Shown one piece after another: positions 1-60,179 of a stretch of 64,000 nucleotides of DNA (positions are counted from its first letter, which is position 1; each line of letters starts with the position of its first letter). Location of the stretch: the NCBI GenBank assembly GCA_035495615.1, contig DATJFP010000088.1, forward strand, positions 41,763 to 105,762, in the 5' to 3' direction. The notes beneath the pieces are model-generated. The model saw nothing but the letters and a program-made list of their open reading frames with translations. It had not been told where the DNA came from and did not search any database. A program made the translations under genes and the position numbers. The DNA comes from Verrucomicrobiia bacterium (GTDB lineage Bacteria > Omnitrophota > Omnitrophia > Omnitrophales > Aquincolibacteriaceae).

Positions 1-330
1 AGGCGCGCGCGGCCGCGGAGCGCGCGGTTGATGTCGGTCTGCAGCGCGATCTCCCCTTCCCCGAGGGCTCGCAGGAACTGATACGCGTAGGCCATGACGA
101 TGGGATTGTTCTCGTCGACGGCCGCGGGAATCACCAGCTGCCCGCTGCGCAGGAGCGTCGAGATGTGGCGGGCATAAGCGCGGTAGATCGGGCCCGAGTC
201 GAAAAACTGATAGCCGAATTCCCTGGCCAGAGCCCGGGCGGCTGTCGATTTACCGGCCTGCGCGGGACCCGCGATATTGATGCCTTCGGGCGTTTCCAGA
301 ATCTGGACCCACTGGTCGAGCGCGGCGTCG
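1..330 (-). other. Cytidylate-kinase-like P-loop nucleoside-monophosphate kinase domain (N-terminal part) at the window edge, continuing beyond position 1
   Basis: Careful codon-by-codon translation gives LDQWVQILETPEGINIAGPAQAGKSTAARALAREFGYQFFDSGPIYRAYARHISTLL...GEGEIALQTDINRALAGR. Compare the Cmk consensus ITIDGPxGAGKGT...LAxxLGxxxLDSGAxYRA...GEIRTQEV. Walker A is GPAQAGKS. Confidence 0.6.
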
Positions 331-3300
331 CGCTTTTCCTTCGGCAGGAGCTGGAGGAACGCGTTCACTTCGGCGGGCAGGTTCTGCGGCTGGACGCGCA
401 TTTCGGCGCGGCCATAGCGTTCGGCCTTGCGGGAAAGGCGCCAGATCTCCGGCGTTACCGCGCCCGGAGCCAGGTCGCCGATCCGCACCTGGATCGCGCG
501 CGACAGGCGCTGAAGAACGCCGGAATCGGTGTGAAAAACGTATTCGGCGCGGGTGAGCAGCTGCCCGAGGCCTTCCAGCGTCACTTCGCGGAGGTTCAGG
601 GCCTCGGCCGGCATCACCGCGAAATCGCCCAGGCCGTTGTCCGCGGCCCAGCGCAGGTAATTCGCATAAACCGAGAGTTCTTCTTCGGAGGTCTTCGGCG
701 GATCGCGTTTGACGATCCTGGCCAGATCGGCGAGCAGTTCCTGGCGCCGGGCTTCGGCGCTTTGCGGGCCGTGCTGCAGGTTGCGCACCAGCGCGTCTTC
801 GCGGCGGAGCCCGAGGCCGGGCACCACGTCGCGGCGCGAACGTTCGTTCAAGCGTCTCATGCTGCGTTCGATCTCGGGATTGGCCGCGGCGCCTTCCAGG
901 ACTTCGGCGGCGGAAACGCGAGCGATCAAGTGGCCGTCGGCGGATTCCTTGGTGGACGGAAGTCCCGGCACGTTCAAAAGCCCATCGTGCAGGTCTTCGA
1001 TGGCGAACGCCGTGCGCGGCGACTGGACCACGAAAGCGCTGAAATTCACCGAAGCCATGCCCGCGGCCGCGATCGCCTCGACATGCGGCCGCAGTCCGGC
1101 GACATATTCAGGATCGCGGTATTCGATATCCCGAATCACGCCCGCGACCGAGGCGATGTTCTCCGCCAGCGGGCCGCGCGTCTTGTAAATCTCATAGATG
1201 TTGGTCAGGCTGGCCATCGAAGGAAGCGTGACCACCCTTGCGTAATCTTCCGGATTGATCTGCTCGATCAGGCGCCGCATCTGGCGGAGCAGAAGGCGCC
1301 GTTCGGTCGAGGCGCGGCGAAGGGCGATCGAGGCCGTGGACTGCGCGGCTTCGCCCTTGGCGCGTCCCTGCGCTTCCTGGGCGTCCCGGAAAGCTTCTCT
1401 CGCGCGTTCGAGGCGCGGCAGGAGCCCGCGGATCGCGATCTGCGTGGTCATCAGTTTGAGGTGCAGCGAAAGCCGGTCAAGATAGTAAGCCAGGTCGTCG
1501 TCGGAAACCGTATTCTCGAGAAGCGCCTCGGTAACGGAACCGCGCAGCCCGAGCGCGGGCCGGTTTTCCAGCTGAAGCACGAGGCCGGACTGCGTCAGCG
1601 CGTAAAGGATCGCGCGCTGGAACGGCAGGAACGCGGCTTCGGCCTGCTCCTGTCCGAGCTTGGTAGTTTTCATGGTCCATTCGCGTCCGCGCGCGTCCGT
1701 GAAATGCGGGAACAGCGCCAGCACGTCCGGCGTATCCGCGGGCGGGATGCGCGTGATGTTTTTCTGCCAGTACCGCACGAACGACGAGGCGTCGAGCATT
1801 TCCGGAACCTGGTTGCTCGAGGTGTAGCTCACCGCGGCCGCGCCCACCGCCTGCTCGAACAGCTTGACCGTGTCGCGGCCGTAAGCGGCCGAGCGCAGGA
1901 ACGCCATGCCGCGGCGCAGCTCGTCGCCGACCGCGCGCACGACGCGCTGGTAAAGTTCGGGGCCGCGGCGCACGGCGCGCATGAGCGCGATCACGTTTTC
2001 GATGTTGTAGTAGCGGCCGCCCGGCGCTTCCGCGTCTTCGGTCGTGCCCAAAAGCTCCGCGCCCGGCTTGCCGTTCAGCCAATCCGAGTACACGCGGCGG
2101 AAGTCGTCGAGATCGATCTGCTTGATTTCGTAGATGAAACGTTCGACCTGGAAGCGGTAGCGGTCGTCCGCAAGTTCGGCTTCCAGCACGCGGTCGATCG
2201 CGGCCTCGCCGGCATTGACGATGAATTCCGCGAGCGTGATCAGGGAACTCGCCAGGCGCACGTCCGAGCCCGTGATAATCACTTCGTTGTGGCGGAAGAG
2301 GAAGGTGTTGAATTGCTGGCGCTGCTTGGCGGTCATGCCTTGGTAAAGGCGGTCGAGGATCGCGGGGTCCGCCTGCGTGATCGTGATCGGCCCGGGCGCT
2401 TCCGCGGTGCGGGACAAGTCTTCCGCGCGGCGCGAGATGCTGTTGGCGATCAGAAGCTCGCGCAGGTAAGAGCCGAGAAGCTTGGGTTCGCTCGCGCGCC
2501 GGATCTGGTTGGTCCTGCCGTCATAGTCCGTCTTATGGCCCAGGTTGACTTCGCTGTACGGGAAGTGCAGGTGGTACACCATACCTTCGATCGCGGTGCG
2601 GAGAAGCGCGTTCGGATCGAACGTGGTTTGTTCGGGCTGCGCGGTTTCCGAGACTTCGTCGAACACGATCCGCTCAGGCGGCGTCAGGCCTTCCTCTTCG
2701 AACCAGCGCCTCACGTCGTCTTCGGTGAGCGGGCCGGCAACAGGAGCGGCCGGAGCGGGAGCGCCTTCGGCCGCCGGCGTCGCCGGAGCCGGAGCCGCGG
2801 GAACGGGCCCGCGCGTTTTCGACCACTGGAACTGGCTTTCGCCTTTGTACGGGGCGGTCTTGGACGCCACGAGAAATTCTTCGACTTTGGCCGCGCCGCG
2901 TGTCTTGCTGAGCATGAGGGCTTTCAGGAAGCCGGTGATGATACCGCCGGAAACGCTGTCCACGAAGCGGATGTCGGTCTTGGGATCGATGCCCGCGGCC
3001 AGGACTTCCGCATAAATGCCCTCGGCGATCCGGTTGAATTCCGGATCCGTGCGCATGCGTTCTTCGAAATACGGCAGCAGCGCGTCGTAGAAGCGGCGTT
3101 CGCGCACCGCGGCGTCCGCCGTGCCCGCCCGATTCTCGCGTTCCTCGTCCTCGCGGAAGAGGCCGCGCACTTCGCCCACCATGCGTTCCATGACCGGGTA
3201 CGCGTTGCCGAGCTTTTCACGCGACACCTGGATGAGGACGTTTTTCGACTCGTCGAATTCCGCGCCCTGCATCATCTGCTTCGTGATCCAATAGTTTGCG

Positions 3301-6300
3301 CCGTCGCGGGCGAGATAAACATTGACCTTCTTGTCGTCGATCTGATCCACGACGTAAGGCAGCAGGCGGTTGATCGCCACCAGGGCGTGGTAGAAGGTGT
3401 ACTTGCCCCTGTTCGCCGGGTCATAGGCCTCGCGGATCGCGTTCTTCAGGTAAGAGATCCTGGAATCCAGCAGGTAGCGGCGGACGTCTTCGGAAGCGCC
3501 GGTCCCCGCGATTTGAGCTTTGAGCTCCGCGGCTTTCTCATCGAGCTTTTTCAGGATTTCGTTTGCATCGTAGGCTTGAACTTCAGCGGTGGGCTTGTAA
3601 AAGGCATTGAGGCGCATTTCGGGACGCAGGACGGGGCCGGACAAATCGATCTCCTGCGCCGGAGGCCCGCGGCGCGTGAATCTCTTGGCCGCGGCCTGGT
3701 TCACGAACGCGGCATTGGCGCGGCGCAGCGTGCGGTAGTTGTCGAACTGTTCTTCCTGGCTGCTCGGCGCGTGCACGCCGTTGGCGGCCGCGAACGTGGC
3801 GCGGTCCGGCGACTGCCAGGAACGGCCGAGGTCGAGCGTCTTTCTCATACTGCCGGAAATCAGCGCGCGATAGATCAGGCTGCGGAGCGAACCGTACTGC
3901 GTGCCGTACGCCTTTTCGGTCGACGCGGGGCCGACGACGATGGTGCTCAGGAATTCCTGCATGCCCACGGCGTTGTAATCGCGGCCGCCGAGCAGCGCTC
4001 TCGCCTGCTCGTCGGACAGGCCGTAATCTCTCACGATCTGAGCGCGCGTGACGCCGGGTTTCAGCTGCAGCGCGACGGGCTGCAGGCCTTCGTTCAGGTA
4101 GTTCCACAGGAATGCGAGCGCGCGCAGGCGCGGGTCGTCGGGATATCTCGGGCCGGCTTCGCCTGCCGGGCGGTTCGTGGCATGGAGCGTTTCGGTCAGC
4201 CACTCGTAGAACGCGGGGCCGTTACGCTCGTCGATCGCTTCGATCGCGGGCTCGACCGGGATGCCGGTGCCGCGCAGCATTTCGGTGCGAAGGCGCAGTC
4301 CCGAATTGCCCCAGATCGCCATGACGTCGTTCTGGAATTCGGGGCTTGGATTTTCCCTGTCCGTGTGGCCGGTCACGCGTCCGGCAATGATGTCGAAATG
4401 CAGTTCCACCTGGTCGAGGACCTGTTTGCGCACGGGCCAGGGCAAATCGCCTTTCAGGACGAGAAGCAGCGGCAGCGTCGACGGGGCTTCGGTCTTGAGG
4501 GGCTTGGGAGCCGGAGCCGGCACGGTTCCCCGCGTCTTGTCGCCCTTGGTGCCATCGGCCCAGCGCACGCCGTTGCGGTTGTCCAGCGTCTTGACCTGTT
4601 TGAGCGAGGTGGACGCCAGGCCCCGCAGCGTCGGGAAATCCTGGTCCGTACGGAAAGCGGCGCCCACGGAAATCGTGAACTCCGGCATGTTCTGCAGCGG
4701 CTCGGCGCGCAGGTATCTTCCCTGCACCTTGAGTTCCCTGTTCCAGTCTTCCAGCTTGCGGGCGAGCGCGGCCGCGAGCGGCACGTTCTTGCCTTTGTCG
4801 AAAACGATGAGCGCGCGGCCGCGGTTGACCGCGATCGGATAACCCACGGTGGTCTTGATCAAGTCACGCGTCTTGTCGTCGAGCGAGCGGAAATCCTGCG
4901 CGCTCTCGGCAAGGCCGAAACGGCCGTGCGTGCCGAACGAAATTTCGGCGCGCAGCCTTTCGAGGAAACGGGCGGCAAGCGCCTTGTCGAGCGGCCGGTC
5001 ATTCGTGCCGGTGATCAGCAGCCAGGATTCGTCGGGGCCGCGGCGGATCTGGCGGGCCGCGAGCTTGGGACCGTCCGCGTCGCGGAAAACATCTTCTTTC
5101 AGGATGTCGTCGATCGCGCGGTTCATGACGATGCGCACCATGCCGGCGAACTTGTACGTGCGGCCTTCGAAGGCCGTGTGGTACTGCGTGAGGAAGTCGA
5201 TGTCGACGGTGGCCAGCGCGAACTGTGTGTTCTGCTCGATCAGCTGCCCGATGAGGCGTTCGCCGTCGCGCTGCCCCATGGCCGCTTCGGAAGTCGTCAT
5301 GATCGGCGTATCGTCGCTGATTTCGGTGGCGGTTCTCCAGGTCTCGCGCTGTTCCAGCTTCGTGGCATCCAGGAAATAAACCGGGGGCAATTCGGAATAA
5401 CGGCGGTTGCCGGCCGCGTCCCACAAGCCCAGCGTATCGTAGTTTTCCTGCCCGCGGACGAGAATCATTTCGGAGTTGAGGAAGGCATCGGCCACGTCGC
5501 CCGCGATACCGCGGTCCCCGTCGTGGCGCTCGGTGCCGGAAATGTTGCGGAGATCGAGGCCGTAAGTGGCCGGGCCGTGATCGGACAGCACGAAGCGGCC
5601 TTCCAGCTTGTGGCGGCGCAGGTGCGCGAGCGCCGGATGTTCGAGAGCGGTCTCGATGTCGCGGACCGTGAGGGCGCGGCCCACGGGCACGGCTTTGGCC
5701 ACGCCGAAAATCGTCAGGCCCTGGTTGTCGTCGAGCCATTTCTGCACCGCGAGGAGGTCCTGCACGCCTTTAGGATCGCGCGGGTTCACGTTTCCGAAAA
5801 CAAAAGTCGCCTTGGCGAAGCTTGAAAGCTGCGGAATCGCCGTGATCGCCGGAGCCGGCGCGTCCAGCACCGCGGTGATCGCCTGCGCCTGCGCGTTCGC
5901 GGCTTCGTCATGTCCGGCTTCTTTGAGCGCCATTTCCACGATGCGGTTGTGCAGCGTCACGTATTCCGGAGCGCTGAGCGTGGTGCGGAATTCACGGCCG
6001 CCCAGGAAAGGCGGCTTCCACTGGCGCACGCGGGCGGCAAAATCTTTCACGTAAGTGCGCGTCGCTTCGTTCTGGATGCCGCGCGCGTCCAGAGCCGCGT
6101 CGAGGAAATCGTCCATTCTCGCGTCGGCGGTGACAAAATCCGTGATCGGCGCGCCGGGACGATAGTCTCCGGGCACCTGCGTCAGAAGCATCTGGGTCCT
6201 GTTTCCGGGTTCGTAATGCGGGGCGTCCACGCTCTCGACTTTGTCCAGGTTGCCGAGGAAAAGATCCATCATGTCCAGCACGACTTCGGCCAGGGTGCGG

Positions 6301-9300: not shown

Positions 9301-12300
9301 TCGCTCTTATGGAAGAGCTGGTCGAAGCCGTCGGTCATGTACGTGCCCAGGTCCGTGTCCGGGCCGATGAGGCCGCGGTCGAACTGGAAGATGGCCTTGA
9401 TCTCGGCCGGCTTGTGCTTGGGAGAGGTTTCGAACCGCACACGGACGGTCTTGGCATCCACCTGCGCGACCGTGACCTTGTAGCCGGGATAATTTTTCCA
9501 GGCGTAGACAACTGGCTCTTCGAGCTTCACTTCCACGGGAATGATCTCGTCACGGGACGGCACCACTGACGGCGCCGCGTGCGCTTCCACTTCAGGCACT
9601 TCTTCTTCGGCGGCAACGCCCACGAGATACGTGCGCAGCGTCGTTCCCAGGATTTGGCCGCGCTGGGCTTCATCCGCGACAAAAGGCGCGAGCGACCAGA
9701 CTTTCGTGCTGCTCCTGCGGATGCCGATGAGTGCGGCCGCGCGGCGGGCGGTATCGCCGGCGGCAAGGCCGCGGCGGCTCGCGATTTCCGTGACCAAGGC
9801 TTCGCGTCCGTTGAGCCCGGCCCTTTCGAGGGCTTTCAGCTTTTCGGCAAAATCCGCGGCGGTCGCCGGTTCGGTCTGTTCTTTCAGGAGCGCGGCCAGG
9901 ACCTCGTCCACTTCCTTGAGAAGCGCGTCCGCCGCTTCCGGTGTGGGAGGCACTTCCGCGAGCGCGGCGATGAGAAGATCCACATTGTCCACGTAGCGCC
10001 GGGTGCCCGGATTGAAATAGCTGCCAAAGAAATCGTCGCGGAGCACCGCGGGATCGTGCACGCGCAGTTCCGTGCGCGCGAAACTCCATTCGCGGCGCGT
10101 CTCGTCTTCCTCGTCGCCGAATTCGCGCGCGGTGTCCATGGCGTCGATGACTTCGTGCACGGCGCCGACCGCGTCGGCGTCCAGGCCCGGCGTTTCTTCG
10201 ACTTCCGGCAGCGCTTCCGGCGTGAGGCCGGTGGTCGCGGGCGCGTAACGGCGGGCGGCCCAGCGGATAGCCTTTGCAGACAGGACAAAAAGAAGCACGG
10301 TCAGCGTGCCCGCCACCATCATGGTATGGAACGCCATGAAGTACCACGGGAAGCGGACTTCGTTGGAAAAGGCAAAGCCGGGCGGCGGCAGCGCGGTCAC
10401 CATGCCGTCACCGATGGAAATCGCGGATCCCACCGGGCTCATCGCGAACGGCGGGATGCCATAGATAAGGAAGACGACGGTCAGGCCCATGGTGATAAGG
10501 CCCATGGCGATGCTGACGCCTTTGGTCCAGGATTTATTTTTCCACAGGATGCCCGAGAACCAGGATGCGAGAGGGCCCATCATGAAGGCCACGCCGATCG
10601 GGAAGAACCACAGGAACCAGTGATAGTCGAGAAGCAGCGGCAGGATCGGCCCGAGAGCGCCGACCGCGGCAATGCGGAAGGCGGTCGTGACCGACCACCA
10701 GAGCAGCCTTCCCCGCTCGCGGGAAATGTCGCGGCGGATCAGGTCCGCGCGGCCCGGCGTCAGGCGCAGGGCTTCGTCGTAGGTTTCGCGGATGCCGCGC
10801 GTCACGAAGAAATTGTCCGCCAGTCCTCTCAGGCTAATGGGGATGGTAAAAAAGTACAAGTTGATCCGGAAATCAATGAGCCTGAAAAATCCGCGTAAGA
10901 GGTCCACCGCCCACATGAGGTGCATGGCCCGCAAGACAGGCTCCGGCCCGTACCATTCCATGAGCGCGCGCATCACCACGAAAACAATGCCGACCCCGAG
11001 GCCGATGAACCATCCGAACGGCAGGACCGTGGAGAAAAACGCGGCCATGCCCACTTTGGCGACGATCCATTGCGAGACGCCCGGAATGGCGCCGATCATC
11101 AGGATGCCGAGCATGGCGTGAAGGACGAGGCGGTACCAGCCGGTCCGCGCCGCCTGCCGGACTTTCGTGTCGCGCTCGATCATCGTCTCCGCCTGTTTTT
11201 CGGGCGTGGTTTCTTTCGTGGGATCGATCTCGTGGCGGAAATAGCGCGCGCCCCAGAAGCCGGTCAGGATCGCGGAAAGAATGCCCGTCAGCAGCGCGGC
11301 GCCGAAGACCGCGAGCGCGCCGAAGCCGAGGAGGAAATGCCCGATGAGGAAGACCGAGAAGAGACCCAGGCCGAACGCGAACGAGGTGCCGAACTCTTCG
11401 AAGTAATGCGCGAGCGGCAGTTCCGGCGATTCCGTGCCCGTCGATTTCCAGACCGGCTTGGCCTGCGCGGCCAGCATTTCGAAACGCACGGCGTTGGCGT
11501 GGTCGCCGCGGATGCGGGCCAGGCGCGCCTGCTGCTTGTAATGGGACACGAGCGTATAGTTGGCATAGAACTGGCGGAAGCCTTCGGCATTCGCGTCTTC
11601 GGTGAGGAACAACTTGTTCAGATAAATCAGCGTGGACATCACGGTCTCGGCCACTTCGATGGGCACGTCCGTGAAAAGGTAATTGCGCCATTCGCGGAAC
11701 ATCACGGTCGAGACGACGAGTACTGCGAGCGCCGGCAGGAAGACGGCCGGCGTGATGGGCAGAAGCCCGATCGCGAGCGGGATTGCGACGAACGCGCGCC
11801 ACACGTGTTTCGGGATGCCGAAGGTCCTATCGCGGATGCCCAGGTAAATCAGGATGAGCGTCGCGACAACGCCCAGGATCGGCGCGGTCCACAGGAGCGC
11901 GGTGAGCGACAGCCCCATAAACGGCACGAAGGCAAGGAGAATGGGCACGGCGAGCGCCAGGTATCTCAAGAACCCGGGCAGCCGGAACGTCCTCAGGAAC
12001 GGGAGCCGCACCGTGATCGGCCGCGGGCCGTTGCGCACCGCCCAGAAGAAGATGGCGGCGCCGAAGAACAGGGCGAAAAACAGAAGCGGCAGCGTGACTG
12101 AAGCAAAGATGCCGAGCGTCAGCGTAGCCGCGCTCAGGAATTTAAATCCGACGATGAGCGCGGCGATCATGCCGCCGATCGAGAACATGATGCCGAGCCC
12201 GTTGTAGAGGCTGCCATAGCGGCGGTCGAAAATCCGGTCCGCTTCCGAACGCATCTCTTCCTGGTCCTGCAGCCGGATATGCGCCGGCGCGTCTTCGGCG

Positions 12301-36300: not shown

Positions 36301-39300
36301 GCGAAACCTCCGATGCGCTGACGCTGCCGTTCTTCGGGCAGCCGCGCCACGGCCGCATCGACGTCCGCTTCCGTGCTCTGTTCGTTGGCGGCGAGCGCGT
36401 TCATGGCCGCCTGCGCGTCCCGGATCAGTCTCGAATCTTCTTCTTCACGTTCCCGCAGGAAATCGCGGCGCGCCAAAGCCGCTTGCCGCAATCCTTCAAC
36501 TTCGGGCGATTTGGCGTTCTTCAGCCGGTCTTCCTGGGCGCGGATGTCGTTGACGTCTTCCGCGGCGGCGATTCGTTCCCGGATGTTCTGCACCACGGCA
36601 ACGCGCTTGGCCTCGATCTGCGGCCTCGCTCCTGTTTTCAAATCCTCATAAGGTACGGCTTCTGCCCGCTCGGCATAAGATTCGATGACTCCGAGCGGCA
36701 CGCCGTCTACGCCAAAGCCCGTCACGTCGCCGACCAGCCGTTCCATTGTTCGCTGGTAGTAATCGTAAATCTGGGCTTCCATCTGAGTCCGCTTGGCCTC
36801 GAGCCGCGGGAACACGAAAAGAAGGAGCGCGTGAAGGCTGGGGGTCGATTCGGTTTGAGCCAGGAGGTTCTTTTTCGCGCGCGCGTAGGCGGTTTGTTCC
36901 GCCGCGGCTCCGGCCTCCTGGTATTCTTTCAGCGCGCGGACGAATTCGTAGGAACTCTTCTGGTCCAGGGGCGGCATTTCCGTGGAAGTCAGCATGGCCG
37001 CGGCTTCGGGCACGATCTGGTCCGGCTTGTCGAGCTGTGCCGCCATGGCCGAGATGAGCCGCGATTCGTACTCGGCGAGGGCGGCTTCAGTCGTGCTGAG
37101 GCGGGCGCCGATGCGCGATTGAAGTTCCGAGACAAGAGGCGCGGGACTGTCGGCCGTTCCGGCAAGCGCCGCGGCTTCCTGGCCCAGGCCCTGGAGGCTC
37201 TGGTAATTTTCGTGCGGATCGCCGCGGGTCTGCTCGAGACGCTGGGCAATGTCGCGGAACTTGATCGTGTTATCGACCTGCGGCGTACGAACTTCGCCGG
37301 GCAGCACTTCGAAAAAGGCAATGACCGCCAGGATGGCGTCGAAATTCGCGGCCACATCCCCCATGTGGGGCTGCAGCGCGCCTTGCAGGAGGGTTTGTCC
37401 GCGCGCGGCAATGATGCCCGGAATCTGGGGCCTGTCCGCTTCGGAGGCCGCGCCGCGCTGCGCGTACGTGTCTACCAGGATCTGCGGGCTCATGGCCTGC
37501 GCCGTCGTGGTCTGGATCAGTTGAAACGCCCGGGCCAGCTTCAGGACGTTCAGGGCGTCGTTATTTTCAGGAGAAAATTTCGTGGTGTCCCACGTGATGG
37601 CGGCCAGACGCTCGAAGGAGTCCGCGCGGTTGATTTGCTTGGCCAGCCGGCCGAAGCGGGATTTTTCCGTGCCGCGCCATTTGATCACTCCCCAAATGGC
37701 TCCGGCTCCGGCCGCGAGACCCGCTGCGATTAAAGCGGGCCCGGTAAGATTGGGCGCGTTGACCGTGACGCCTCCTGCTTGTTCCGCCAAATACTGATAA
37801 AGTTCGTAAACGCCGTAAACCGCCACGCCGGCGCCGGTGAGAACTCCCAGGCCGAGCAGAATGCGGTTTCTCCAGACGCGGGCCGTCTCTTCCCGTCTTT
37901 CCAGTTCGGTCTTTCTCGCGCGCGCGCCGTCCTGCTCCGCCGCGGGCAGATCATTGATCACAGCTTCGGTAATATCGGCCGACCGCCGGGCTGCTGCGAC
38001 GGCTGCGCGCGCATCCTCGATCTTCTTGAGAGCGTCGCGCTTTTCCCGGGCCTGGTCCCGCTCGCCGTCGTTTTCGAGATCCGCGAGCACCGCGTCGGTA
38101 ATCTGCGCCGACTGCGTGGCCGTGGCGACCGTACTTCTCGCGGCTGCAAGGCGCGCCGCCTGGATCGCCGTCCTCTTGCCTTCCGCGACTCCGGCGAGCC
38201 TCGCCGCTTCCGTCGTCTGAGCTCCTTCCAGACGCGCCGTCTGCGCGGCCACCTCTTCGATCGTGCTGGCGTCGGTCAATGCCGTCAACTTGCCTTCGAT
38301 GTCCGCCACGATTTGCGTGACTTTGCCGCGGATTTCATCTTCCACCGCCCCGCGAGCGGCCCCGTCTTTGATGCCGGCCGCCAGAGGCAGAAGAGCTTCG
38401 GCGTCGCTTATTTTCGCGGCAGCGGCATCGATCTGTCCGAGCTGTGTCCGGATATCGCGCGCTTTATCCTCGTCACCCCGCAGCCGGTCGCGAATCTGTT
38501 CCACGGCGGCATCCGCCTGGTCTTTCACCTGGATGCGGAGACGTTCCTCCAGACCGTTCACAATGGCGGCGAGCTGATCTTCCGTGGCCGTTTCCAAATC
38601 CAGGGCTCCGATCGCGCGCTTGGCCTCAGCGACCGCGCGGCCGTCCGCTTCGATTCTCGCCTCGATGGCTGCGCGTTTGGCTTCCGCCAATTCCCGCAGC
38701 CGCGCTGCTTCGGGAGTCTTGGCATCTTCGAGGCGTGCGGTCTGCGTCACCACCGATTCGGGAGTGTTGAGTTCGGTGAGGGCATTCAATTTGCTTTCGA
38801 TGTCGGCGACGATCTGCCCGACTTTGCCGTTGATCTGGCTTTCGACACTGCCGCGAAGCGTCGCGTTCTGGATCTGCGCGGCGCGCGTCAGCAGGGCTTC
38901 CGCGTTTTCGATCGTGGCGCTTTCAGGCTGAACCTGCCCGAGATCCGAAAGGATGGCGCCGGCTTTTTCGTTGTCGCTGCGGCCGCGCTCGCGGATCGCG
39001 GCAATCTTGGCATCCGCTTCGTCGCGCACATGATCACGCAGGCGGGCCGGCAGCCCGCTGCGAATGGCTTCAACGGCGTCTTCCGCCGCCGTGTTCACAT
39101 CAATGTCGTCGATCTGGCGCTTGGCTTCGACTATAGCCCGGGCATCGGCCCCGAGCCTGTCGCTGATCGCCTGTTTTTTCTGTCCCGCCAGATCGCGCAG
39201 GCGTCCGGCATCGGCAGCGGCGGCGCCTTCGAGCCGCGCAGCCTGGGCATCCGGGTCAGCCAGCGCATTCAGTTCCGTCATGGCGTTCAACTTGCCTTCG

Positions 39301-42300
39301 ATGTCCGCGACAATCGCGGTAACGCGGGCGTTGATTTCGCCCTCGATCGCGCTCCTCAAGGTTTCTCCCTTGATCTGTTTCGCCCGCGGCAACAAGGCTT
39401 CGGCGGCGTGCACGTTGGCATCGCCCGGAAGGAGGGCCGCAAGATCGCCGCGGATCGCTACTGCTTTTTCATCGTCGCTTCTCAAACGTTCGCGGATGGC
39501 CGAGAGCGCCGCCGCGACATCTTCCGCAATCTGGTCACGCACGCGTTCGGGCACGCGCGTCTCGATGGCTTGGACCTGGGCAGGCGTCGCGGTTTCGGGA
39601 TCGAGCTGGCCGAGGTCCTGTTTGGCCGCCGTGACGGCTTCGCGGTCCGCGGCGATGCGCCTCGTGATGGCGTCCATCTTGCCGCGCGCCAGATCGCGAA
39701 GGCCTGCGGCTTCCGAGGTAAGCGCGTCTTCGAGGCGCTGGACCTGCGTGTCGACTTCGGCCGCCGCGCTCAACTCGGTCAAGGCTTCCAGTTTTCCGCG
39801 GATGTTTTGGACGATCCCGCCCACTTTCGCGTTGATTTCATCCCGCACGGTTTCTCTCAGAGCGGGGTTCTTGATGTCCGCGGTCTCCGTCAAAAGGGCT
39901 TCGGCTTCTTTGACAGCGGCCGTTTCAACCGGCAGCAGTCCAAGCCGCTCACGAATGCTTTGCGCTTTTTGTCCGTCGGTTTCGATGCGCTGGCGGATCG
40001 CAAGCAGGGCCGCCTGCGCTTCGGTGCTCACCTGGCCGCGCAGACGTTCAGCAAGACCGTTCACGACGGCTTCGACATCGGTGGCCGCGGCTTCATTTAT
40101 ATTAAGGCTCGTGATCGCCTGCTTCGCCTGGCTTACGGCGAGCTCGTCCGCCCGGATCCTTCTCTCGATGGCGGCCGATTTTTCTTCCGCAAGCGTGCGC
40201 AGCCGGCCCGCTTCGGACGTGGCCGCGTCTTCCAGCCTCGGCGTAATCGCCGTCACGCTGGCGGGCTCGTTCTGGTCCGTCACGGCATTCAATTTCCCTT
40301 CGATGTCCGCAACGATCGCTTTGACTTTCTGATTGATCTCGCCTTCGACCGCGGAGCGCAGCGTTCCGTCTTTGATCTGCCCGGCGCGGGTCAGCAGCGC
40401 TTCCGCGTCTTTGATCGCCGCCGTATTGGCAATCGCTCCGAGGTCACCCCGGATGGCCGCCGCCTTTTCGGTATCGCCCTGCGTGCGTTCGCGAATCGTG
40501 GCGGCCGCGGCATCCGCTTCGGCCTTGACCTGATCACGCACCCGTTCGGGCACGCGATTGCGAAGGGCTTCTACGTCGTCCACCGCGGCCGTGTCCAGAT
40601 TGAGCGCCGCGATCGCCTGCTTGGCTTCGCGCACGGCGCGTTCGTCCGCGTCGATCCGGTTTTGAATGGCCCTGGATTTCTGCTCCGCCAACTCCCGCAG
40701 CCGGGCCGCTTCCGGCGTCACCGCGCCTTCAAGCCGCGACGTCTGGGCCGTCACTTCTTGGGCCGTGCTGAGTTCCGTCAAGGGCGTCAGCTTCGTTTCG
40801 ATGTCCGCGGCGATCTGGCCGGTCTTGGCATTGATCTCGCCTTCCACGGCCGGACGCAGCACCGCATCTTTGATCTGCGCCGCGCGGGGAAGCAGCGCTT
40901 CCGAATCCGTGAGCTTGGCCGTCGCGGCGGCGATACCCTGCAGGTCCGAACGAATCGCCGCGGCTTTTTCTCCGTCGCCCCGCGTGCGGTCGCGGATCGT
41001 GGCAATGGCCGCGTCCGCTTCGGTCTTCACCTGCTCGCGCACCCGCTGGGGCACCCCATTGCGGAGGGCTTCCACTTCGTCCACCGTGGCCGTGTCCAGA
41101 TTGAGCGCCGCGATCGCCTGCCTGGCGCCGCTCACTGCGAGCGTGTCGGATTCGCCGCGGCCGGAGATGGCCTGAGACTTTTGGCCTGCCAGCTCCCGCA
41201 GCCGGGCCGCTTCCGGCGTCACCGCGCCTTCGAGCCGCGCCGTCTGGGCCGTCACCTGGTCGGCCGTGCTTTCGTCCGTCAAGGCGTTCAACTTTCCTTC
41301 GATGTCCGCGACGATCCGCGTCACGACCGCGTTGATTTCGCCTTCCACGGTCGTCCGCGCGGTCTGGTCCTGAATCTTTGCGGCGCGCTCGAGCAGCGCT
41401 TCCGCGTCTTTGATGTTCGCGGCCGCCGGCACGATCCGTCCGAGATCCGCGGCAAGGGGCCCGCGAAGCGCCGTGTCTTCTTCGCCCCGCTTTAAGTCAT
41501 CCCGCCGCCGTTGAGCCCCTGCCAAAATCACGTCGTAGGCGCTTCTTTCATCCCCGGCGAACGTCACCCCCGTCACAAGCCGTTCCGCTTCATCAAGTTT
41601 CTGCTGCGCCTCGGCCGCTGTGTCCGCAGCCTGGGCTGCGGCAAGCAATCCGACCAGCGAAACAACATTGCCTCGGCGCGTTACCTGCTCTTGTTCGGCT
41701 CGCTTCAAGTCGCGCTGCTTTACGCGCAGGGCTTCGAGGGCTTCGGTATAACGGGCTTCTTCCTGGCCGGCAAATGTGACCTGGCTGCGCAGTGCCGTGA
41801 CGGTCGCGATCGTGGCTTCCGCCTGCGTCGACGAGGTCGGCTCCACGGCCAAAAGAGCCATCAGGTGCCGGACTTTTCCCGAACGTTCGGCTTCCGCATC
41901 TTCGTCCGTCTTGAGACGCTGCGCGGCTTCGCGTGCAAGCCCGAGCGCATCGGTGTACTGCCGCTGTTCATTCCCCTGAAATTGGACGCGGCCTGCAAGG
42001 TCTTCGGCTTCTCGGATCATTTCCTCGGCTTCGGATGCCGTTGCGGCGCGCTGCGCGCCTGTCAGCAGGCTCTGGATGCGGCGCACCGAGGCTTCGCGGT
42101 CCGCGACAAGTGCCCGATGCTCGGCGATGAGTCCGGCCAGCGCGCGCGTGCGAGTGCTTTCAGCGGCGCCTTCCAGCCTTTTTTCCTGGAGGTCGAGGAC
42201 GCCTGTGTCATAAGTGCTCGTGACCTGGGTCCGGATATTGGATTCGATGGCAAGCGCGGTTTGTTCGACTTCCCCTTCGAGCGTCGTGCGCAGGCCTTGA

Positions 42301-45300
42301 TTGCGGACGCGCGCCACGTCCTTCAGCACGGCTTCCGCTTCCGCCAGCGTGGCCGTCGCCGCTTTCACATTCAAATTCGCGAGCGCGTCACGTACGGTCC
42401 TGGCCAGGGTTTCTTCCTGCGCCACGGCTTCCTGGATGGCTTTCTTTTTCTGTCCCGCCAGCGCCTGGAGCCACGGCTGGGCCGCGGGATTGAAACGCCT
42501 TTCCTGCGCCTCGACCGCGCTGACGGCCGCGGTTTCGTCCATCGCGGTCAGCGTTTCCTGGATGTTGTCAATGAGGCTGCCGATCACGCGGCCGACTTCG
42601 CCCTGCCACGCCTGACGCACGCCTTTGTTCTGGATCTGATTGACCCGCTGATAAAGCATTTCCGCGTCGCTGATCTGGGCAGTCGTAAGGTCGAGGCCCT
42701 CGATCGCTTCCATCACGCCTACGGCAATCTCATCGTCTTTGCGGATCCTGTCGCGGATGGCCTGGCGCACGGTCTCGGCTTCTGCGGCAATGCGCGTCTG
42801 GAGAGGTTCCCGCAAAGTCGCGGCCACGGCGTTCACGTCTTCTTCCTTCGCGGTCTTCGGATCGATCTTGCTCAGTTTCCCCAGAACGTCCTGCACGCTC
42901 GCCGCGTCTTCAGTTTCCTGCAGGGCCATGAGATCCAGCACTTCCACGACCTGTTTGTCCCCGCGCACGGCGTCTTGGAGCCGCAGCGGAAGCGCAGTGA
43001 TCGCGGCTTCCACGTCCTGGGAGGCCGCTTGCCCGATCACCATGCTCGTGATGGCGGCGATCGTCTGCGTTTTCATCGCTTCGTCTTTCTGCTCACGGGC
43101 CGTGATCGCGCGGGTCATCTCCTCCACCTTGCTGCTCAGCCTTTTGAGGACGTCTTCCGGAAGGCGGAGGGCCATATCTTCGGGAAGACGGAACATGACG
43201 GCGTTGACCTGAGGCACGGTAGAGGTCTCGACCGGAAGAGCGCCGATCTCGGCAACCAATCCGTCGATAAAGGCGGAGTCGCTCGCCGCCTGGAAACGAT
43301 CATGGACCGCCTTGACGCCGGCCGTGAGATCCGTGCGCAGATTTCCGCGGTAGCCGCGGGTCCGTTCGCTCTGAGCGGCAAGCTCGTCTTCATTTTTGAC
43401 TCCGGCCAGACGCTCGACGACGTTCTGCGCCACCTTCTCCTGCTGCGCGGCCGCGGCCTGTTCGATCTGGTCCCGGTAAGCGCGGCCAGGCGCAAATCCC
43501 AGCAGCCGCAGCCCCTGTTGGACAAAAGCCGAGACGTCGCGCACCGACACCTCGCGCGCGTCGATTTCCCCGATTTGCCGGACAAGGTCTTCCACGGCAC
43601 TATCCATTCTCTGCCGGCTCCGCTGTTCGCGGCTTTCGGCAAGGTCACGCTGTCTTTTCTGTTCACGGGCCTGACGCGCCTGGTCGACCGGCACGGCTTC
43701 GAGTTGTTCGACCGCGGTTTCGCGGGCCTGTTCTTCCGGCTGTGGCACGGGCTTGGGCTGTTCTTCGGCCACTTCGGCCGCGGGAACTGACTGGACCACG
43801 AGCGAATACAGATGCGCAATGTCTTTGTATTCCTGGAGGACGAGCTTGATGACTTCCGTACGCGTCTGCACGGCCATCTCGAAAAGCGCCTGCTTTCTGC
43901 CTTGCGCGGTTTCATCCGCATCGGTCGTCGACTGCTGTTTCAGCGCCTCGAAAAGCGCGCGGATGAGCGCCGGGAGCTGGGCGAGTTTTTCCTGGACGGC
44001 CAGAAGCTGGCGCGCGGTCTGTTCGCTGGACAATTCTTCTTCGCTGGCAAGGCGTAAGGTTTCCAGGGTGTCGCGAAGGCTGTGGAGTCCCTGCACGAAG
44101 TTCGCGCCGTCCTGATAGCCTTCGCTCAGCTTCGAATAAATATCGCGGTAGGCCACACCGATGGCCTGGACCGCGTTGTCTTGGGCCGCCCGCAATTTCT
44201 CATCCAGGCTTCCGAGCGCTTCATCGAGCTGCTGGATGCGTTCGGTGAAACGCACGCGCAGCGCCTCGGCCCGGGTCTGGATTTCAGTGCCTTCATAATA
44301 AGATTCCCGTGACAAGGCAGCCAGCTGCTCCATGACCACGTCCCGAAGCCGCCACAGGGTGTACTGTTCGTTTTCGATGACCCCGGCCGCTTCACGCACC
44401 AGCGGGAATTGCCCCGCGGGCTGCTGCAGCTGGGCCTCAAGCTCTGATATATAGGAAGCGGTGTGCCCGAGCTCCTGGTCCGTTTCGCGTTCGATTGTGT
44501 TCAAACGGCGCGTCAGCACGCCCATGTTATATTCCGCGATTTGCCGGATCTTCTCGTCCGCGGCGGCGCGGACGCGGTCTTTGAGATTCGCGGGTAGGAG
44601 ATCGACCAGCCGGTTGACTTCCGCGGGCGTGCCGACCGGAACCGAGACTTTCGTCTCGATGGCGGCCGTGACTTTTTGCACCTGCAGGTCGTCGAGCTTG
44701 CCCAGGGAAGCGGCGCCGCGCGCAATAACCGCGGCAAGCGCCTGCCTTCTGGATTTCAAAAATTCAATTTCGCTTCGCACGCCGGGATCCACGGCGTCCG
44801 GATTTTTTCCGAAGGCATCTACCTTCGCGTCGAACTGCGCGAGCGTCCTATCCGCTTCCTCCCGGATTTTCCCGATCTGGAGCCGGATCGTGTCGAAGAT
44901 GCTAGTCGTTTCTTCGGTGAGGTTCGGGACGTTCATGAGGCTTTCGGCGACTTCGAGGCTGCGGATCAGCCTCGTCTCTTCCGTTTCGTAGAAAGCGCGG
45001 GCTGCGGTGACTTCGCCCTTCAAGGCCAAAACGCGTTTTTCCGTGAGTTGGATTTTACGCGTCAGTTCCCGGATCCCGGCCTGGGCGTCTTCGGTCACCC
45101 TCTTCAGGGAATCGTCGAGCTCGCGGAGAAGGTCTTCGGGTTCTTCCGTCGTCCTCAATTCCGCGCGCAGGCCGACAGCAAGCTGGGGCATCTGGCGGGC
45201 ATTCCCATTCAAGCTTGCGAGAAGCTGGCTGCGTCCTTCGCTTCCGAGACCCGCAAAATAGGCATCGGGCCGGCCGAGCAGTTCGCCGATCAGGGCCAGG

Positions 45301-48300
45301 ATTTTTCGGACCGCTCCCGCCGACGGAGTCTGCTTGAGTCCCGCCAGCGTCTGTCCCGCTTCCGCGATCGCTTTCTTGGCATCGACCGCCGCGGGCTGCT
45401 GCACGGGTTGGCGGGCCCGCTCGAGCGCACGCGCGATGCCGGGAAGATCGCGGATTTCAGGAGGCAGGGCTTCGAGAGTCTTGGCAATTTCGGCGACTGG
45501 TTCCGGGACCATCTCCGGATCGAGCTCGGGCGTCAGCGAAACATCGAGGGCATGCTGGATATTATTGTAGAGCAGATTCCCTTCTGTCCCCGTGGCCTTG
45601 TCTTCGTAAGAGAGCTTCTTAATAATGTAGTCGCGCAGGTCCGCCATTGCGAGAGCGATCGTGCCGGCCTGAATCTGGCGCGCGGCAAACAGAATCGCGT
45701 GATGGTCATACGTAATGCCCGTCGTATCCGAAACCTTGGGCATGTTCGCGGCGCGGTCTTCTTTCCAAAGGTCCTCATTGCTCATGGCCGCTTCCGGGAA
45801 GGCCTTGTTATGCTGGCGCAGCGATGCTTCCTCAAGCAAATCCAGGACGGCGTTCCGCTGCTGGCCGCCGAGCGCGTTCCAAGCCGCTTCGTCCGACCGG
45901 CGGATCAATTCGATCTGGTCGCGCAGCGCCTGCTGCAACTGCCCGGCCGCCTCTTCCCGCTGGATTTGGGAAGTCCACGCCTGCGGCAATTTATCGAGGA
46001 TCCAACGCTGTACCTGGACCGAATAATCCGTGACTTTCTTTTCCGTGGCCGTGCGCGGAACGGTGAGGCTCATCGGGTCTCCCGGCTGGACTTGCAGCCG
46101 GTCCAGATGCATCAGGAAATGAATGAGCGCGTTCTTTTCCTGCTTCGTCCACGACGTAAGCTCGGAGTTCCACCGCTGAAGCCCCATGAACCGGTTTCTC
46201 GAGAGATCGTAGCGGCGCTTTTCGATTTCCGGACGCGGGCGCTCCACAGCGCCTTCCTGGAACCGCAATTCGCCTTTCAACGCGGCCTGGCCGAGGTCGG
46301 TAACGACGACGCTGATCTGGCCGGGCTGCACCTTGCCGAGCGCTTCCGTGACGGCCGGATCCCTGACCAAGTGCGCATCCACGGGCCCGGAATAATAGTT
46401 GCTGTCGCCGAGCTCCAGCCGGTTCAAACGGTCGGGCTGTTTGAAAAGCCCGCGGGCTTCCGAATCCTGGCTGCGAAGCACCTTCGCAAAAAGGCGCAGC
46501 GCCTGTGTCTTGTCTTCGCCCGTCTGCCACAAAAACTGGTTCGGACCTTTCCGCTCCAGCACGCCGCCGAAACGGTTGACGATCGCGAGGAGACCCTGCT
46601 GGTATTCCGCAGGAATTTCCGCGGCGATTTTCTTACGCATTTCCTCGAGCGCCTGCTCAGGAGTATTGCTTTCGAAGATGCTTTCGACGATCGTCAGGGT
46701 CATGAGGAAAAAGGCGTGCGCGTATTCAGGATCGCGGGCGATGAAATCGGCGGCTTCCTGGCGGAGACCCAGGCTCGCCGCATTCAGAAATTCGCGCGCC
46801 TTGGGCGATTTTTCGATGACCATGTGCCAGGCCGCGAGCTGGAAGCGCGGGTCGCTCAGGCTTTGCTGCTGGGGCGGGAGGAAAGTCTCCACCAGCCGCG
46901 TTTCGAGCGGCATCGGCTTCTGGCTGAGGGCGTCCACGTAAAGCTGCGTTTCCTTGGTGTCGTCGATCTGGCCGTGGATCCGCGGCGCGATCACAAGGAA
47001 AGAATAATCGTTTTCCTTGAGATAGGCCTCGATGCCGGGCGTATGGAAACCACCGGTAATGATCGCCATGATCTGCTGCTTCCCGGATTCCATTTCCCCG
47101 ACCGCTCTCTCGATCAGGATCTTGTCGCGTTTGAGAGCTGCGGAATAATAACGCTCCACGCGGCCAAGATCCTGATCAAGGATCTCCAAAAGGGACGGCA
47201 ATCCATTGGAGAACTGATGTTGCTTTAAGAGCGGTACGAGGAAATTACGGAATGTCTCTGCCTTGAATTCGTCGCGGTATGTGTAGAAAAAGTCTGCGTC
47301 CTGCTTGGTCAGGGTGAAATTGAACATCTTCTGGTAAATCTCGAAAATGCGGAACAGCCGGTCCAGCTGCACTTCCTCTTCGTTGCGGAACAGCTTGTTC
47401 TTGATGTCCCGCTCGAGCGCCTCGATCTCGCTGAAGATCGCGACGTCGATCGAATCGTAGAGCCTCATATATTTAAGGTAGCGCAGGACCTCGTCGTACT
47501 TCTGGGCCAGCTCTTCCTGCCCGGCCCCCTGCGTCGACTGCATGTTCTGGATTTCGACCTGGAGATAGCCGTAATAGTCCGCGCGCTTCATCTTCTTCAT
47601 GCGGAACTGGACCGTGTTGGTCAGAAACTCGGAGAGTTTTTCACGCGTGAGGACGTTTTTCAGGTCGTTGATCAGGTCTTCGATGCTTTTTTCGGCTTTG
47701 TCGAAATCGATTTCTTTTTCGAGATCGATGAGCGAGAGAAGCGAGTGCATGCCCGGATAATCGTAAAGGGCGATGTTTTCTTTGCGGGCCGTTTCCACGA
47801 GATGGCGGACGTAACTCACGAGTTCGTTGCCGCCGGACTGGAAGGCCTGCCGGTAATGCAGCATGTCCCGCAGATCATCGGAGAAAACGAACCGGGAAAC
47901 ATCGTCCATCAGCTTTCCGAGGTCCGCCAGAACTTTTTCGTCTCGGTCTTTGTATTGCAGGGCGTCGAGATAAGCGCGCCTGTTTTCTTCATAGATCTGG
48001 CGGTCTTCCACGCCGTACAGGTTCAGTTCCGGCCGGTCGACGATCGCGAGGTATTCGGGCCCCGTCAAACGGGCTTCTTTCAAAAAGTAATCCGCGACAT
48101 TTTTGCGGGCTTCTTTGTTCGGAAAAAACGAAAAGAGTTCGGTGAAGAGTTCGCCCTCGGCGCCTTCCAGGTTGATCAGTTTAAGACCGTAATTTTTGGC
48201 GAAATAATCAAGGATGCCCGCGATGTTGCGCTGGGCCTCTTCATTTGCATGAGCGTCCTGGATGTGGATGACGATGCGGTCGCGGGAACCCTGGAAGTTT

Positions 48301-48530: not shown

Positions 48531-48704
48531 GAGGATTTGCCGTCCCTATGTTTTGCTGGCCAAATTGACGTGCTAACTTACCGACTACTTAAAAAATTGA
48601 TTTATATTGTTATATTTAAACTATATATCAAAGTTTTTAAACTCACAATAGTATAGACCGAAATAATTGTAAGTTAAATACTTGATAAAAGTTTTTATGA
48701 AGTA

Positions 48705-48733
48705 AGTATAGCCGCCACTTTCTAAATTGTCAA
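48705..48733 (-). promoter_or_regulatory. Candidate sigma70-type promoter for the giant gene: TTGACA, 17-nt spacer, TATACT on the minus strand
   Basis: The minus strand reads ccgaTTGACAatttagaaagtggcggcTATACTtac inside the 266-bp AT-rich gap (48531..48796) between the receiver gene and the giant-gene ATG. The predicted TSS is near 48697, giving a ~165-nt leader. Confidence 0.4.
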
Positions 48734-48779
48734 TCGGAACTTTAGGCAGAAAGGGAGTTTAGCCTGGTTTTAAGGAAAG

Positions 48780-48795
48780 CCCCTACAATAAGGGG
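48780..48795 (-). terminator. Short GC hairpin (CCCCT-acaata-AGGGG) directly after the stop codon of the receiver gene, flanked by T-rich sequence. A possible weak intrinsic terminator or attenuator.
   Basis: The plus strand reads gaaagCCCCTacaatAAGGGGtttattc at 48776..48803. Receiver stop codon (TAA) is at 48799..48797. The U-tract on the minus strand is poor (cuuuccuu). Confidence 0.25.
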
Positions 48796-48796
48796 T

Positions 48797-49228
48797 TTAT
48801 TCTTCGGGATCGTCTTCCGGGGTCTTCTTCGGGGCGAGGTTATCTTCGATGCATTTGACCAGGTCCTTGGTACTGACCGGCTTAGAAAGGGCAGGTTTAA
48901 TGGTAAACGGCCGCCCCCCTACCACTCCGCCGAAGGCTTCGCTTTGCCCCTTGCCCACGGTAGCGGTAAGAAAAACGATGGGGGTGTTATTGATCTTTTC
49001 CGTTTCTCGGATTTCGATGGCCACCTCCGTACCACGCTTGTCCGGCATAATCACGTCCAGAAGAATGAGGTCGGGTTTGAAGTCTTTGGCCGCCTGCAGC
49101 CCCTGGGCGCCTTTGGTCTCCACGCGGACCTCGAACTTTCCGAGGGCTTCCAGGTTTTTTTTGATCATGCTTGCGAATTTTTCTTCATCGTCGATAACAA
49201 GGATTTTTTTCTTTGCCGGGTCTGCCAT
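48797..49228 (-). CDS. Stand-alone response-regulator receiver (CheY-like REC) protein with an acidic C-terminal tail
   Basis: ORF-track translation [17 protein letters not shown]...LILLDVIMPDKRGTEV...VFLTA has the REC hallmarks (DD pair, phospho-acceptor D in LLDVIMP, T and K in the later loops). An 11-bp gap to the downstream kinase suggests an operon. Confidence 0.8.
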   Translation of the reverse strand: MADPAKKKILVIDDEEKFASMIKKNLEALGKFEVRVETKGAQGLQAAKDFKPDLILLDVIMPDKRGTEVAIEIRETEKINNTPIVFLTATVGKGQSEAFGGVVGGRPFTIKPALSKPVSTKDLVKCIEDNLAPKKTPEDDPEE

Positions 49229-49239
49229 GATTCCTCCTG

Positions 49240-50802: not shown

Positions 50803-50877
50803 GACGACACACCGGTCTTCGGGAATAAACCAGATTCAGGAAGGAAATGTTGGGGCGCGGGACGTAGGAAGCGAGGA

Positions 50878-51326: not shown

Positions 51327-51402
51327 TGGTGGACCTGAGGAGGATCGAACTCCTGACCTCATCGTTGCGAACGATGCGCTCTCCCAGCTGAGCTACAGGC
51401 CC
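51327..51402 (-). tRNA. tRNA-Ala (anticodon CGC) with encoded CCA
   Basis: The reverse complement reads GGGCCTGTAGCTCAGCTGGGAGAGCGCATCGTTCGCAACGATGAGGTCAGGAGTTCGATCCTCCTCAGGTCCACCA. It has a 7-bp acceptor stem with the G3:U70 Ala identity pair, D-loop AGCTGGGA, anticodon loop TTCGCAA, T-loop TTCGATC and a 3' CCA. Confidence 0.85.
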
Positions 51403-51411
51403 ATTGAATTT

Positions 51412-52257: not shown

Positions 52258-52267
52258 GCCGCTGCTT

Positions 52268-60178: not shown

Positions 60179-60179
60179 A

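Follow-up and report, generated by a model that had tools for sequence, protein, structure and literature searches.

A minus-strand reading frame of more than 16,000 codons with a conserved hydrolase-like head in Candidatus Omnitrophota

The 64,000-nucleotide stretch of DNA analysed here (the window; positions 41,763 to 105,762 of contig DATJFP010000088.1, assembly GCA_035495615.1) is occupied from its left edge to position 48530 by a single open reading frame (ORF) on the minus strand, and over the 15 kb upstream of it (48.8-64 kb) by bacterial genes of ordinary kinds, every one of them also on that strand. The ORF begins with a hydrophobic helix and a conserved domain, called the head below. 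Beyond the head the chain is a mosaic of lineage-specific sequence and modules common to other giant ORFs. We consider this most probably a real single protein-coding gene of Candidatus Omnitrophota, whose product would be a giant protein embedded in the membrane, longer than 16,176 residues (aa) and of a kind typical of that phylum.

The reading frame and its antisense shadows

An initial annotation of the window had proposed an unlisted giant ORF of more than 16,000 codons with its 3' end off the window, hidden behind plus-strand ORFs that share its codon register. A scan of the minus frame whose codons occupy positions 3k to 3k+2 bore this out, as no TAA, TAG or TGA was found from 48545 to 3, a run of 16,181 codons. 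The longest open stretch in any other frame of the window is 1,940 codons, and the probability of such a stop-free run arising by chance, calculated from base composition, is about 1e-196. The start was also placed correctly: an in-frame TAG lies at 48548-48546, the first ATG follows 15 nt further on, and the alignments of homologues begin at residue 1 of this start. Where a promoter had been reported upstream, there is a promoter-like TTGACA-17-TATACT site within a 266-bp AT-rich intergenic region, and a terminator-like hairpin (48794-48780) follows the upstream response-regulator gene.

In each 3-kb slice of the gene, G+C is 0.73-0.86 at third codon positions (GC3) and 0.34-0.50 at second positions (GC2). 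Because this pattern persists in every slice, the frame looks coding along its whole length, and GC3 exceeds GC1 and GC2 solely in the minus reading. The gene has a GC content of 62-66% compared with 50-55% in the flank (1-48000 against 48000-64000, ~10 percentage points), which reflects a higher share of Ala and Arg, a lower share of Lys and a gradual increase in GC3. The latter climbs from 0.73 at the 5' end to 0.86 with no abrupt join, and the codon preferences are the same as those of the neighbouring genes (GAA, CGC, CTG/CTC). Alanine makes up 12.8% of the protein, with GCG accounting for 47% of its codons. Not one of the 16,181 codons encodes cysteine; the neighbouring genes contain 0.63% cysteine, which would predict ~100 in the giant gene, and head-family ORFs elsewhere have a mean of 0.11%.

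On the plus strand, 15 ORFs with a length of 250 aa or more have start coordinates of 0 mod 3, the longest being 1,886 aa; the initial annotation had recognised the common register and counted fourteen. This plus register contains 21 stops in 48.5 kb, compared with 397 and 608 in the remaining two plus frames, and the 21 are accounted for by 8 TTA, 1 CTA and 12 TCA sense codons of the giant gene. The 15 ORFs are antisense shadows of the giant gene, which itself is absent from the ORF list because it runs off the window. With the giant ORF unbroken and the shadow stops accounted for, both the observation and its explanation by antisense shadows are confirmed. A 426-aa plus-strand ORF opposite the AMP-binding gene (52256-53536), which has no Pfam match, is probably a further shadow.

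Table 1. Features of the window; all lie on the minus strand, and residues are numbered from the ATG at 48530.
Feature	Residues	Positions	Remarks
Giant ORF		3..48530	16,176 codons from ATG 48530; 3' end beyond window position 1
Promoter-like site		48705..48733	TTGACA-17-TATACT; 11/12 consensus match only; ~175 nt upstream of ATG
N-terminal hydrophobic helix	12-30	48441..48497	Kyte-Doolittle; preceded by 3 Arg/Lys; AlphaFold2 (AF2) helix at 11-26
Conserved head domain	~62-560	46851..48347	Alpha/beta core split by ~300-aa helical insertion (~190-480)
Helical repeat region	~1730-4660	34551..43343	Chunked phmmer; autocorrelation peak at lag 167
Core repeat array	~2259-3540	37911-41756	~7.6 tandem 167-aa units, 40-47% identity
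Hydrophobic hairpin	3557-3575 and 3598-3616	37683..37862	Ends core array; Arg/Lys on outer flanks
PP2C-like phosphatase domain	~4790-5085	33276..34163	NNEDA, VADGAGG, YSDGG, DDDDVS
Module A	~8675-9400	20331..22508	Membrane-associated, hydrophobic hairpin; GPHLLDQFFYG, RAPP, FVEHxAINWGH, GVHTExGD
Module B	~10037-11000	15531..18422	Common to giant Omnitrophota ORFs L039, P0061, P0062 (6,825 aa)
Polytopic membrane block	~11354-12755	10266..14471	~17 hydrophobic helices
GT84/GT2-like glycosyltransferase domain	~11800-12010	12501..13133	Within 408-aa loop between two membrane helices
ARMT1-like (damage-control phosphatase) match	~14257-14367	5430..5762	Pfam 19.3 bits, below cut-off 25; hint only
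Module C	~14735-15473	2112..4328	Common to giant fragment P0058 (4,150 aa); phmmer 105.6 bits
Cytidylate-kinase-like P-loop domain, N-terminal part	16084-16176	3..281	GPAQAGKST; cut by window edge
tRNA-Ala(CGC)		51327..51402	Conserved upstream neighbour of giant gene
Neighbours, outward from giant gene		48.8-64 kb	Response regulator, PAS histidine kinase, response regulator, tRNA-Ala(CGC), Hydrolase_4, AMP-binding enzyme
Neighbours past AMP-binding enzyme		to 64 kb	Patatin/cNMP protein, PilZ, DUF520, PilZ, SPOR, GNAT, SPOR, GH1, LepB, LepA

The head and the modules of the chain

The N-terminal helix is predicted to be a signal anchor or signal peptide. When the first 1,200 aa were used as a query, 54 proteins were found with up to 63% identity and coverage confined to the first ~570 aa; the named matches are almost all 'Candidatus Omnitrophota/Omnitrophica hypothetical protein, partial' (Omnitrophota or the Planctomycetes-Verrucomicrobia-Chlamydiae (PVC) group). 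A pattern scan for the head across one genome per species (185,579 species) yielded 202 confirmed places, mostly at the head of ORFs that run off their loci; an identical head was not found in this collection. We kept 79 loci (L numbers below; P numbers are proteins), and every one that names a phylum names Omnitrophota or the PVC group. The ORF initiated by the head runs off the locus in 63 of the 79, with up to ~4,000 aa visible. One 'complete' homologue of 1,297 aa, P0004, ends at a frameshift in L008 (13834-13855), and at least 2,623 more codons, including module A, lie in another frame; the frameshift is either an assembly error (1.6x coverage) or the mark of a pseudogene. The head also occurs as a free protein in some Omnitrophota: stand-alone, head-only proteins of ~483-499 aa with 28-32% identity were found in L072, L076, L078 and L079. 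Several genomes have two head ORFs (L015/L048, L052/L058, L045/L054 and L028/L064, as well as L070 and L077, ~29 kb apart on contig PLNN01000019.1), and the family therefore includes paralogues besides the syntenic orthologue.

The AlphaFold model of the head (pLDDT 78.5, pTM 0.74) has an alpha/beta core with a parallel sheet, and its best likeness is to hydrolases of the TIKI/TraB/erythromycin-esterase type. Residues D92, H94, E122, R468, G493, G494 and H496 are invariant, five of them (D92, H94, E122, R468 and H496) in 28 sequences. The catalytic site of RRSP comprises E3900, H3902, E3930 and H4030, plus R4001, and these five residues of the head follow in the same order with nearly the same spacing, the first Glu being replaced by Asp. 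The head appears to keep the His/Glu/Arg motif of the TIKI superfamily (Tiki, TraB/PrgY, GumN, ChaN, erythromycin esterases, RRSP and HopBA1), but differs from its members in the ~300-aa helical insertion that splits the core and in its fusion to a chain exceeding 15,000 aa. Sequence profile searches of Pfam, NCBIfam and the PDB gave no match for the head, and Foldseek with the head model gave no significant match. Alignment of the head to PrgY with hhalign reached a probability of 4%, which is not significant, although the RD...GxxH stretch was nonetheless aligned. Taken together, the motifs and the predicted model are good but not conclusive evidence that the head is an active hydrolase.

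The helical repeats described by the initial annotation were recovered by phmmer, by autocorrelation and in an AF2 model. Copies more diverged than those of the core array flank it on either side. Two units modelled by AF2 (pLDDT 92.6) are all alpha, with three helices of ~28-37 residues per unit. Neither Foldseek nor a PDB profile search found a significant solved-structure match for the repeats, and a likeness to the three-helix rods of staphylococcal Ebh was dropped because no match supports it. Tandem Repeats Finder (TRF) reported no DNA tandem repeat, the 501-nt period being above its limit, and the empty result of a whole-protein blastp self-comparison was an artefact, as phmmer on chunks revealed the repeats.

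Transmembrane helices had also been noted, and a hydropathy scan, on which this count rests, finds ~27 hydrophobic segments including the N-terminal one. Hydropathy and charge did not lead to one consistent topology, and none is claimed. For the polytopic membrane block, HMMER was run exhaustively against 1.84 billion representatives and recovered no more than 17 relatives. The best-conserved stretch of their alignment (A6) contains DxD, QP, GK(F)G, SHD and R/K-W motifs, and in the PDB its profile matches 8rf9/8rf0 (Cgs residues 595-780; E 2.3e-19) and nothing else. The window sequence, which by itself has no PDB or Pfam match over this glycosyltransferase-like (GT-like) domain, scores 207 bits against a family profile built without it, and carries the motifs SDKD, YQPW, FGKFG, ESHDEKE, LLTDVPITEG and SIWKRFD.

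The GT84 polymerase domain of Cgs is a modified GT2 fold docked on the cytoplasmic side, beneath the membrane helices; D624 and D527, which bind uridine diphosphate (UDP), the catalytic base D739, and R773 of the RW motif are its key residues (PMC10901819). Equivalents of D624 (in SDKD) and W774 are kept in the giant protein. It shares with Cgs the DxD-type Asp, the QP, GK(F)G, SHD and TDV...E motifs and the RW Trp, and with both Cgs and BcsA the placement of the domain between hydrophobic membrane helices. In contrast to Cgs, no Tyr acceptor loop was identified, there are many more membrane helices, and the domain is built as a single module into a giant chain; the cyclase (CY) and GH94 phosphorylase domains had no Pfam or PDB match in the window. 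Among the relatives of the GT84-like module are P0070, a protein of 1,400 aa that ends in a 'Glycoamylase' (PF10091) domain, and the fragment P0058, and the partner domains in these two point to glucan metabolism and to nucleotide or phosphotransfer chemistry as partners that recur.

Two further enzyme-like domains named by the initial annotation are present. Four metal-binding-type Asp motifs of PP2C can be seen by eye in the first, which scores 24.2 bits against Pfam PP2C_2 (cut-off 24, with half of the model covered) and 35 bits (E 1e-8) against NCBIfam Stp1_PP2C_phos, far below the equivalog cut-off. Compared with PP2C phosphatases of the Stp1/SpoIIE type it appears to keep the Asp motifs, but its scores are at or below the family cut-offs and it is an embedded module, not a free enzyme. 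The second, the cytidylate-kinase-like (CMK-like) domain, matches Pfam Cytidylate_kin at 36.8 bits (profile positions 1-37), TIGR00017 at 37.6 bits and cytidylate kinases in the PDB, with only the first ~37-56 profile positions falling inside the window. It has the P-loop and following helix of cytidylate kinase, but is truncated by the window and is likewise an embedded module. In P0058 a full-length CMK domain is followed by APH and HD domains, and a HAD domain is also present. Because the CMK-like domain of the window is cut at the edge while P0058 continues in this way, the giant gene probably extends well past the window. Neither an exact 70-mer nor the last 400 aa of the in-window protein had a match in the metagenome contig collection.

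Module A was found by tblastn in 8 loci (26-40% identity; alignment A2) and by its profile in ~12, where it is located 900-1,900 aa after the head; the distance between the two is ~7,000-8,000 residues longer in the window gene. The order of modules B and C relative to the CMK domain differs in P0058. PDB profile searches with modules A, B and C gave no meaningful match. A protein homologue search was empty for module A and the membrane block, which is a weak negative since relatives exist in genome loci. The initial description of a chain with alternating membrane and enzymatic modules is roughly right, except that most of the chain has no recognisable domain.

Chromosomal address and host

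Upstream of the head ORF, the order GNAT - SPOR - PilZ - DUF520 - PilZ - patatin - AMP-binding - Hydrolase_4 is found in more than 20 Omnitrophota head loci. In 12 related loci tRNA-Ala(CGC) directly precedes the head ORF at a distance of ~600-1,200 nt, with Hydrolase_4 on its other side (L008, L009, L012, L013, L014, L018, L020, L021, L024, L025, L047 and L048); it is farther upstream in L027 and L042. Because this gene order and the tRNA-Ala are common to related loci, the giant gene sits at an orthologous chromosomal position. The tRNA reads GCG, and its presence may reflect codon supply, an integration landmark or coincidence.

The window locus differs from the orthologous loci only by an inserted trio of response regulator, kinase and response regulator (48797-51243, minus strand), whose kinase has PAS and receiver domains. 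Most orthologous loci lack the trio, with L048 having one receiver gene. It looks like a lineage-specific insertion and could regulate the giant gene. The conserved partners at 51412-57014 (minus strand) are lipid-related, namely the lysophospholipase-like Hydrolase_4, the AMP-binding enzyme resembling acyl-CoA ligases, and a cNMP-regulated patatin phospholipase. Beyond them are two PilZ proteins and DUF520. A functional link between these conserved partners and the giant gene is possible.

By its homologies the gene belongs to a Candidatus Omnitrophota genome; the window is without rRNA or a full marker set. The initial annotation had likened the gene to giant proteins of Omnitrophota, Chlorobi and Verrucomicrobia. 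The likeness holds for Omnitrophota, through homology of the first 570 aa (up to 63% identity) and synteny with more than 20 genomes, but no homology to the giants of Chlorobi or Verrucomicrobia was seen. Short-read assemblies that contain an identical response regulator (JGI 3300045391, Logan SRR9009773) end no more than ~350 nt into the giant gene, or before it. The neighbouring response regulator is carried by only two contigs, both shorter than 3 kb. Such breaks near the gene start illustrate how genes of this kind are lost from fragmented assemblies.

Interpretation and comparison with known giant proteins

If the gene is translated as one chain, the protein would be inserted in the inner membrane by its N-terminal anchor, several hydrophobic hairpins and the block of ~17 helices. 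The head, with its His-Glu pair, second His and Arg, might hydrolyse a peptide or ester bond, the target being a substrate, a partner or the very chain to which the head belongs, and the ~3,000 aa of 167-residue helical repeats could serve as a spacer or scaffold. As in Cgs, the glycosyltransferase in the polytopic block would face the cytoplasm, where the PP2C-like and nucleotide-kinase-like modules could regulate or supply its activity. If the 12 helices after the GT loop are real, the last ~3,400 aa would be cytoplasmic, which suits a kinase-like domain. A role in the envelope in contact with other cells, as has been proposed for other Omnitrophota giants, is suggested by the fast change of the interior.

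Several points weigh against this account. No function can be assigned to about 85% of the chain. The 3' end of the gene, hence its total length and C-terminal content, lies outside the window. SecA_DEAD, C39 and S8 domains were not found in the visible 16,176 aa by Pfam searches of 1,000-aa chunks at E values up to 0.5. The N-terminal helix predicts that the head and repeats are outside, whereas the charges around the first hairpin suggest the opposite. The GT-like domain could be inactive, because the Arg of the RW motif (Cgs R773) is Ile, the first UDP-binding Asp (equivalent to Cgs D527) was not located in the A6-based alignments, and the catalytic Asp is aligned inconsistently, the SHD equivalent of Cgs D739 being kept in the MAFFT alignment while HMMER places the catalytic base differently.

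We have weighed four other explanations. It is very improbable that an assembly artefact, either a chimera or a collapsed or expanded repeat, joins a ~600-aa head gene to unrelated GC-rich sequence. The GC difference between gene and flank would fit such a join, as would the short-read assemblies of the same organism that break ~350 nt into the gene, but a random or foreign join would not keep one frame stop-free for 48 kb. GC3 rises without a step, the codon preferences do not change, the orthologous head ORFs run on in the 63 other genomes already mentioned, and modules from deep within the gene are met again in other giant ORFs, where they likewise follow this head. The reverse assignment, in which the plus-strand ORFs are the true genes and the minus frame their shadow, can practically be dismissed. 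Those ORFs are long and all in one frame, yet that frame is broken 21 times where the minus frame has no stop. The four largest have no Pfam match, and the homologies of the head, the PP2C, GT84-like and CMK domains and modules A-C, like the GC3 excess, are every one on the minus strand.

The remaining two explanations accept the frame and concern its product. A polyprotein precursor from which internal initiation or rapid proteolysis, for example by the head hydrolase, yields many proteins is unlikely, though the best of the four. West-Roberts et al. propose cleavage of giants by N-terminal C39 or S8 peptidases, the head has a hydrolase-like site, module order varies among relatives, and stand-alone heads of ~490 aa exist. 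On the other side, neither cleavage sites nor internal ribosome-binding sites came to light, in the course of work that included no systematic search for them, and the polyprotein would still require a single translated ORF, so that it refines the account of a single giant gene and does not replace it. The published peptide evidence from Velamenicoccus archaeovorus does not resolve the processing of that organism's giant protein. We think it less likely again that the product is mainly a secreted or surface fibre of the adhesin type whose enzyme-like matches are incidental. The 3,000 aa of helical repeats, the N-terminal hydrophobic helix, the lack of cysteine and the fast-evolving interior would all suit a fibre, but the repeats are less than 20% of the chain, and the ~27 hydrophobic helices with their 17-helix block favour an integral membrane protein. 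Moreover, the substrates required by the PP2C, CMK-like and GT-like domains are cytoplasmic, Pfam scans found no adhesin, dockerin, TSP3, Ig-like or beta-helix domains, and Foldseek gave no fibre-like match for the repeats.

The single membrane-embedded giant protein therefore remains our preferred explanation. A more specific proposal, which we put forward tentatively and doubt more than we believe, is that the head ORFs form a distinct, vertically inherited class of giants at one locus beside tRNA-Ala(CGC) and lipid-remodelling genes. Their products would combine a protease or esterase head of the TIKI type with a possibly self-priming, Cgs-like glycan polymerase in a cysteine-free membrane chain, and module insertion, shuffling and repeat expansion would have remodelled the interior so fast that orthologues share only the head. 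If true, conservation of the head alone is the pattern expected of a determinant of host or prey contact under diversifying selection.

No feature of Omnitrophota is more striking or less understood than their giant genes, the greater part of whose sequence lacks annotation. A gene such as this one will not surprise a specialist as an object, but is a useful entry point. Its conserved hydrolase-like head marks a large family, its conserved chromosomal address lets orthologues be compared and shows the speed of interior turnover, and its glucan-synthase-like module, invisible to Pfam, was detected only through a profile built from rare relatives. It also demonstrates that automated ORF lists can miss giant genes that overrun a contig and list their antisense shadows instead.

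Omnitrophota ORFs of up to 85,804 aa with numerous membrane helices have been described, most full-length giants having divergent SecA_DEAD domains, and N-terminal C39 or S8 peptidases have been found that, it was suggested, may cut the giant proteins (West-Roberts 2023, 10.1101/2023.11.21.568195). The same study distinguishes an Archaeovorin type, with glycosyl transferase, methyltransferase, glycosyl hydrolase, peptidase, SAM and NUDIX domains, from a Dockerin type with many dockerin and TSP3 repeats, and cites the detection by proteomics of a 39,678-aa protein of V. archaeovorus (10.1101/2023.11.21.568195). A later study puts the number of proteins that reach 10,000 aa at 5,761, the longest measuring 147,155 aa. 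Membrane helices or a signal peptide are present in 94% of them, singletons make up 80% of the sequence clusters, and no domain was matched in 137 of the 916 proteins in its catalogue (Nielsen & Lui 2026, 10.64898/2026.06.07.730766). With such numbers, the rarity that the initial annotation attributed to a gene of this size does not hold within the phylum.

The giant gene fits this described class and is not a new kind of object. It shares with the Omnitrophota giants the phylum, one ORF exceeding 10,000 aa and an N-terminal hydrophobic segment, and has ~27 membrane helices compared with a reported mean of 22 for proteins of at least 10,000 aa. Like them it mixes modules of the sugar-metabolism, kinase and phosphatase types with long unannotated stretches, and it resembles the singletons of the catalogue in its unique sequence and the 137 of 916 in being nearly 'Pfam-dark'. 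No dockerin, TSP3, NUDIX or methyltransferase domain had a Pfam match in the visible 16,176 aa, and of the Archaeovorin type only a cryptic GT-like domain and a hydrolase-like head are present. The glycosyltransferase resembles Cgs/GT84 rather than the GT1 or starch-synthase type, and the neighbours are lipid-metabolism genes and a tRNA, whereas type II secretion or sugar-import genes have been reported for some giants. Neither giant-gene paper (10.1101/2023.11.21.568195; 10.64898/2026.06.07.730766) mentions a TIKI-like head domain or discusses cysteine. Beyond what these two papers describe, the present gene adds a family with a TIKI-like head, a conserved tRNA-Ala(CGC) locus, a cryptic GT84-like module and the complete avoidance of cysteine.

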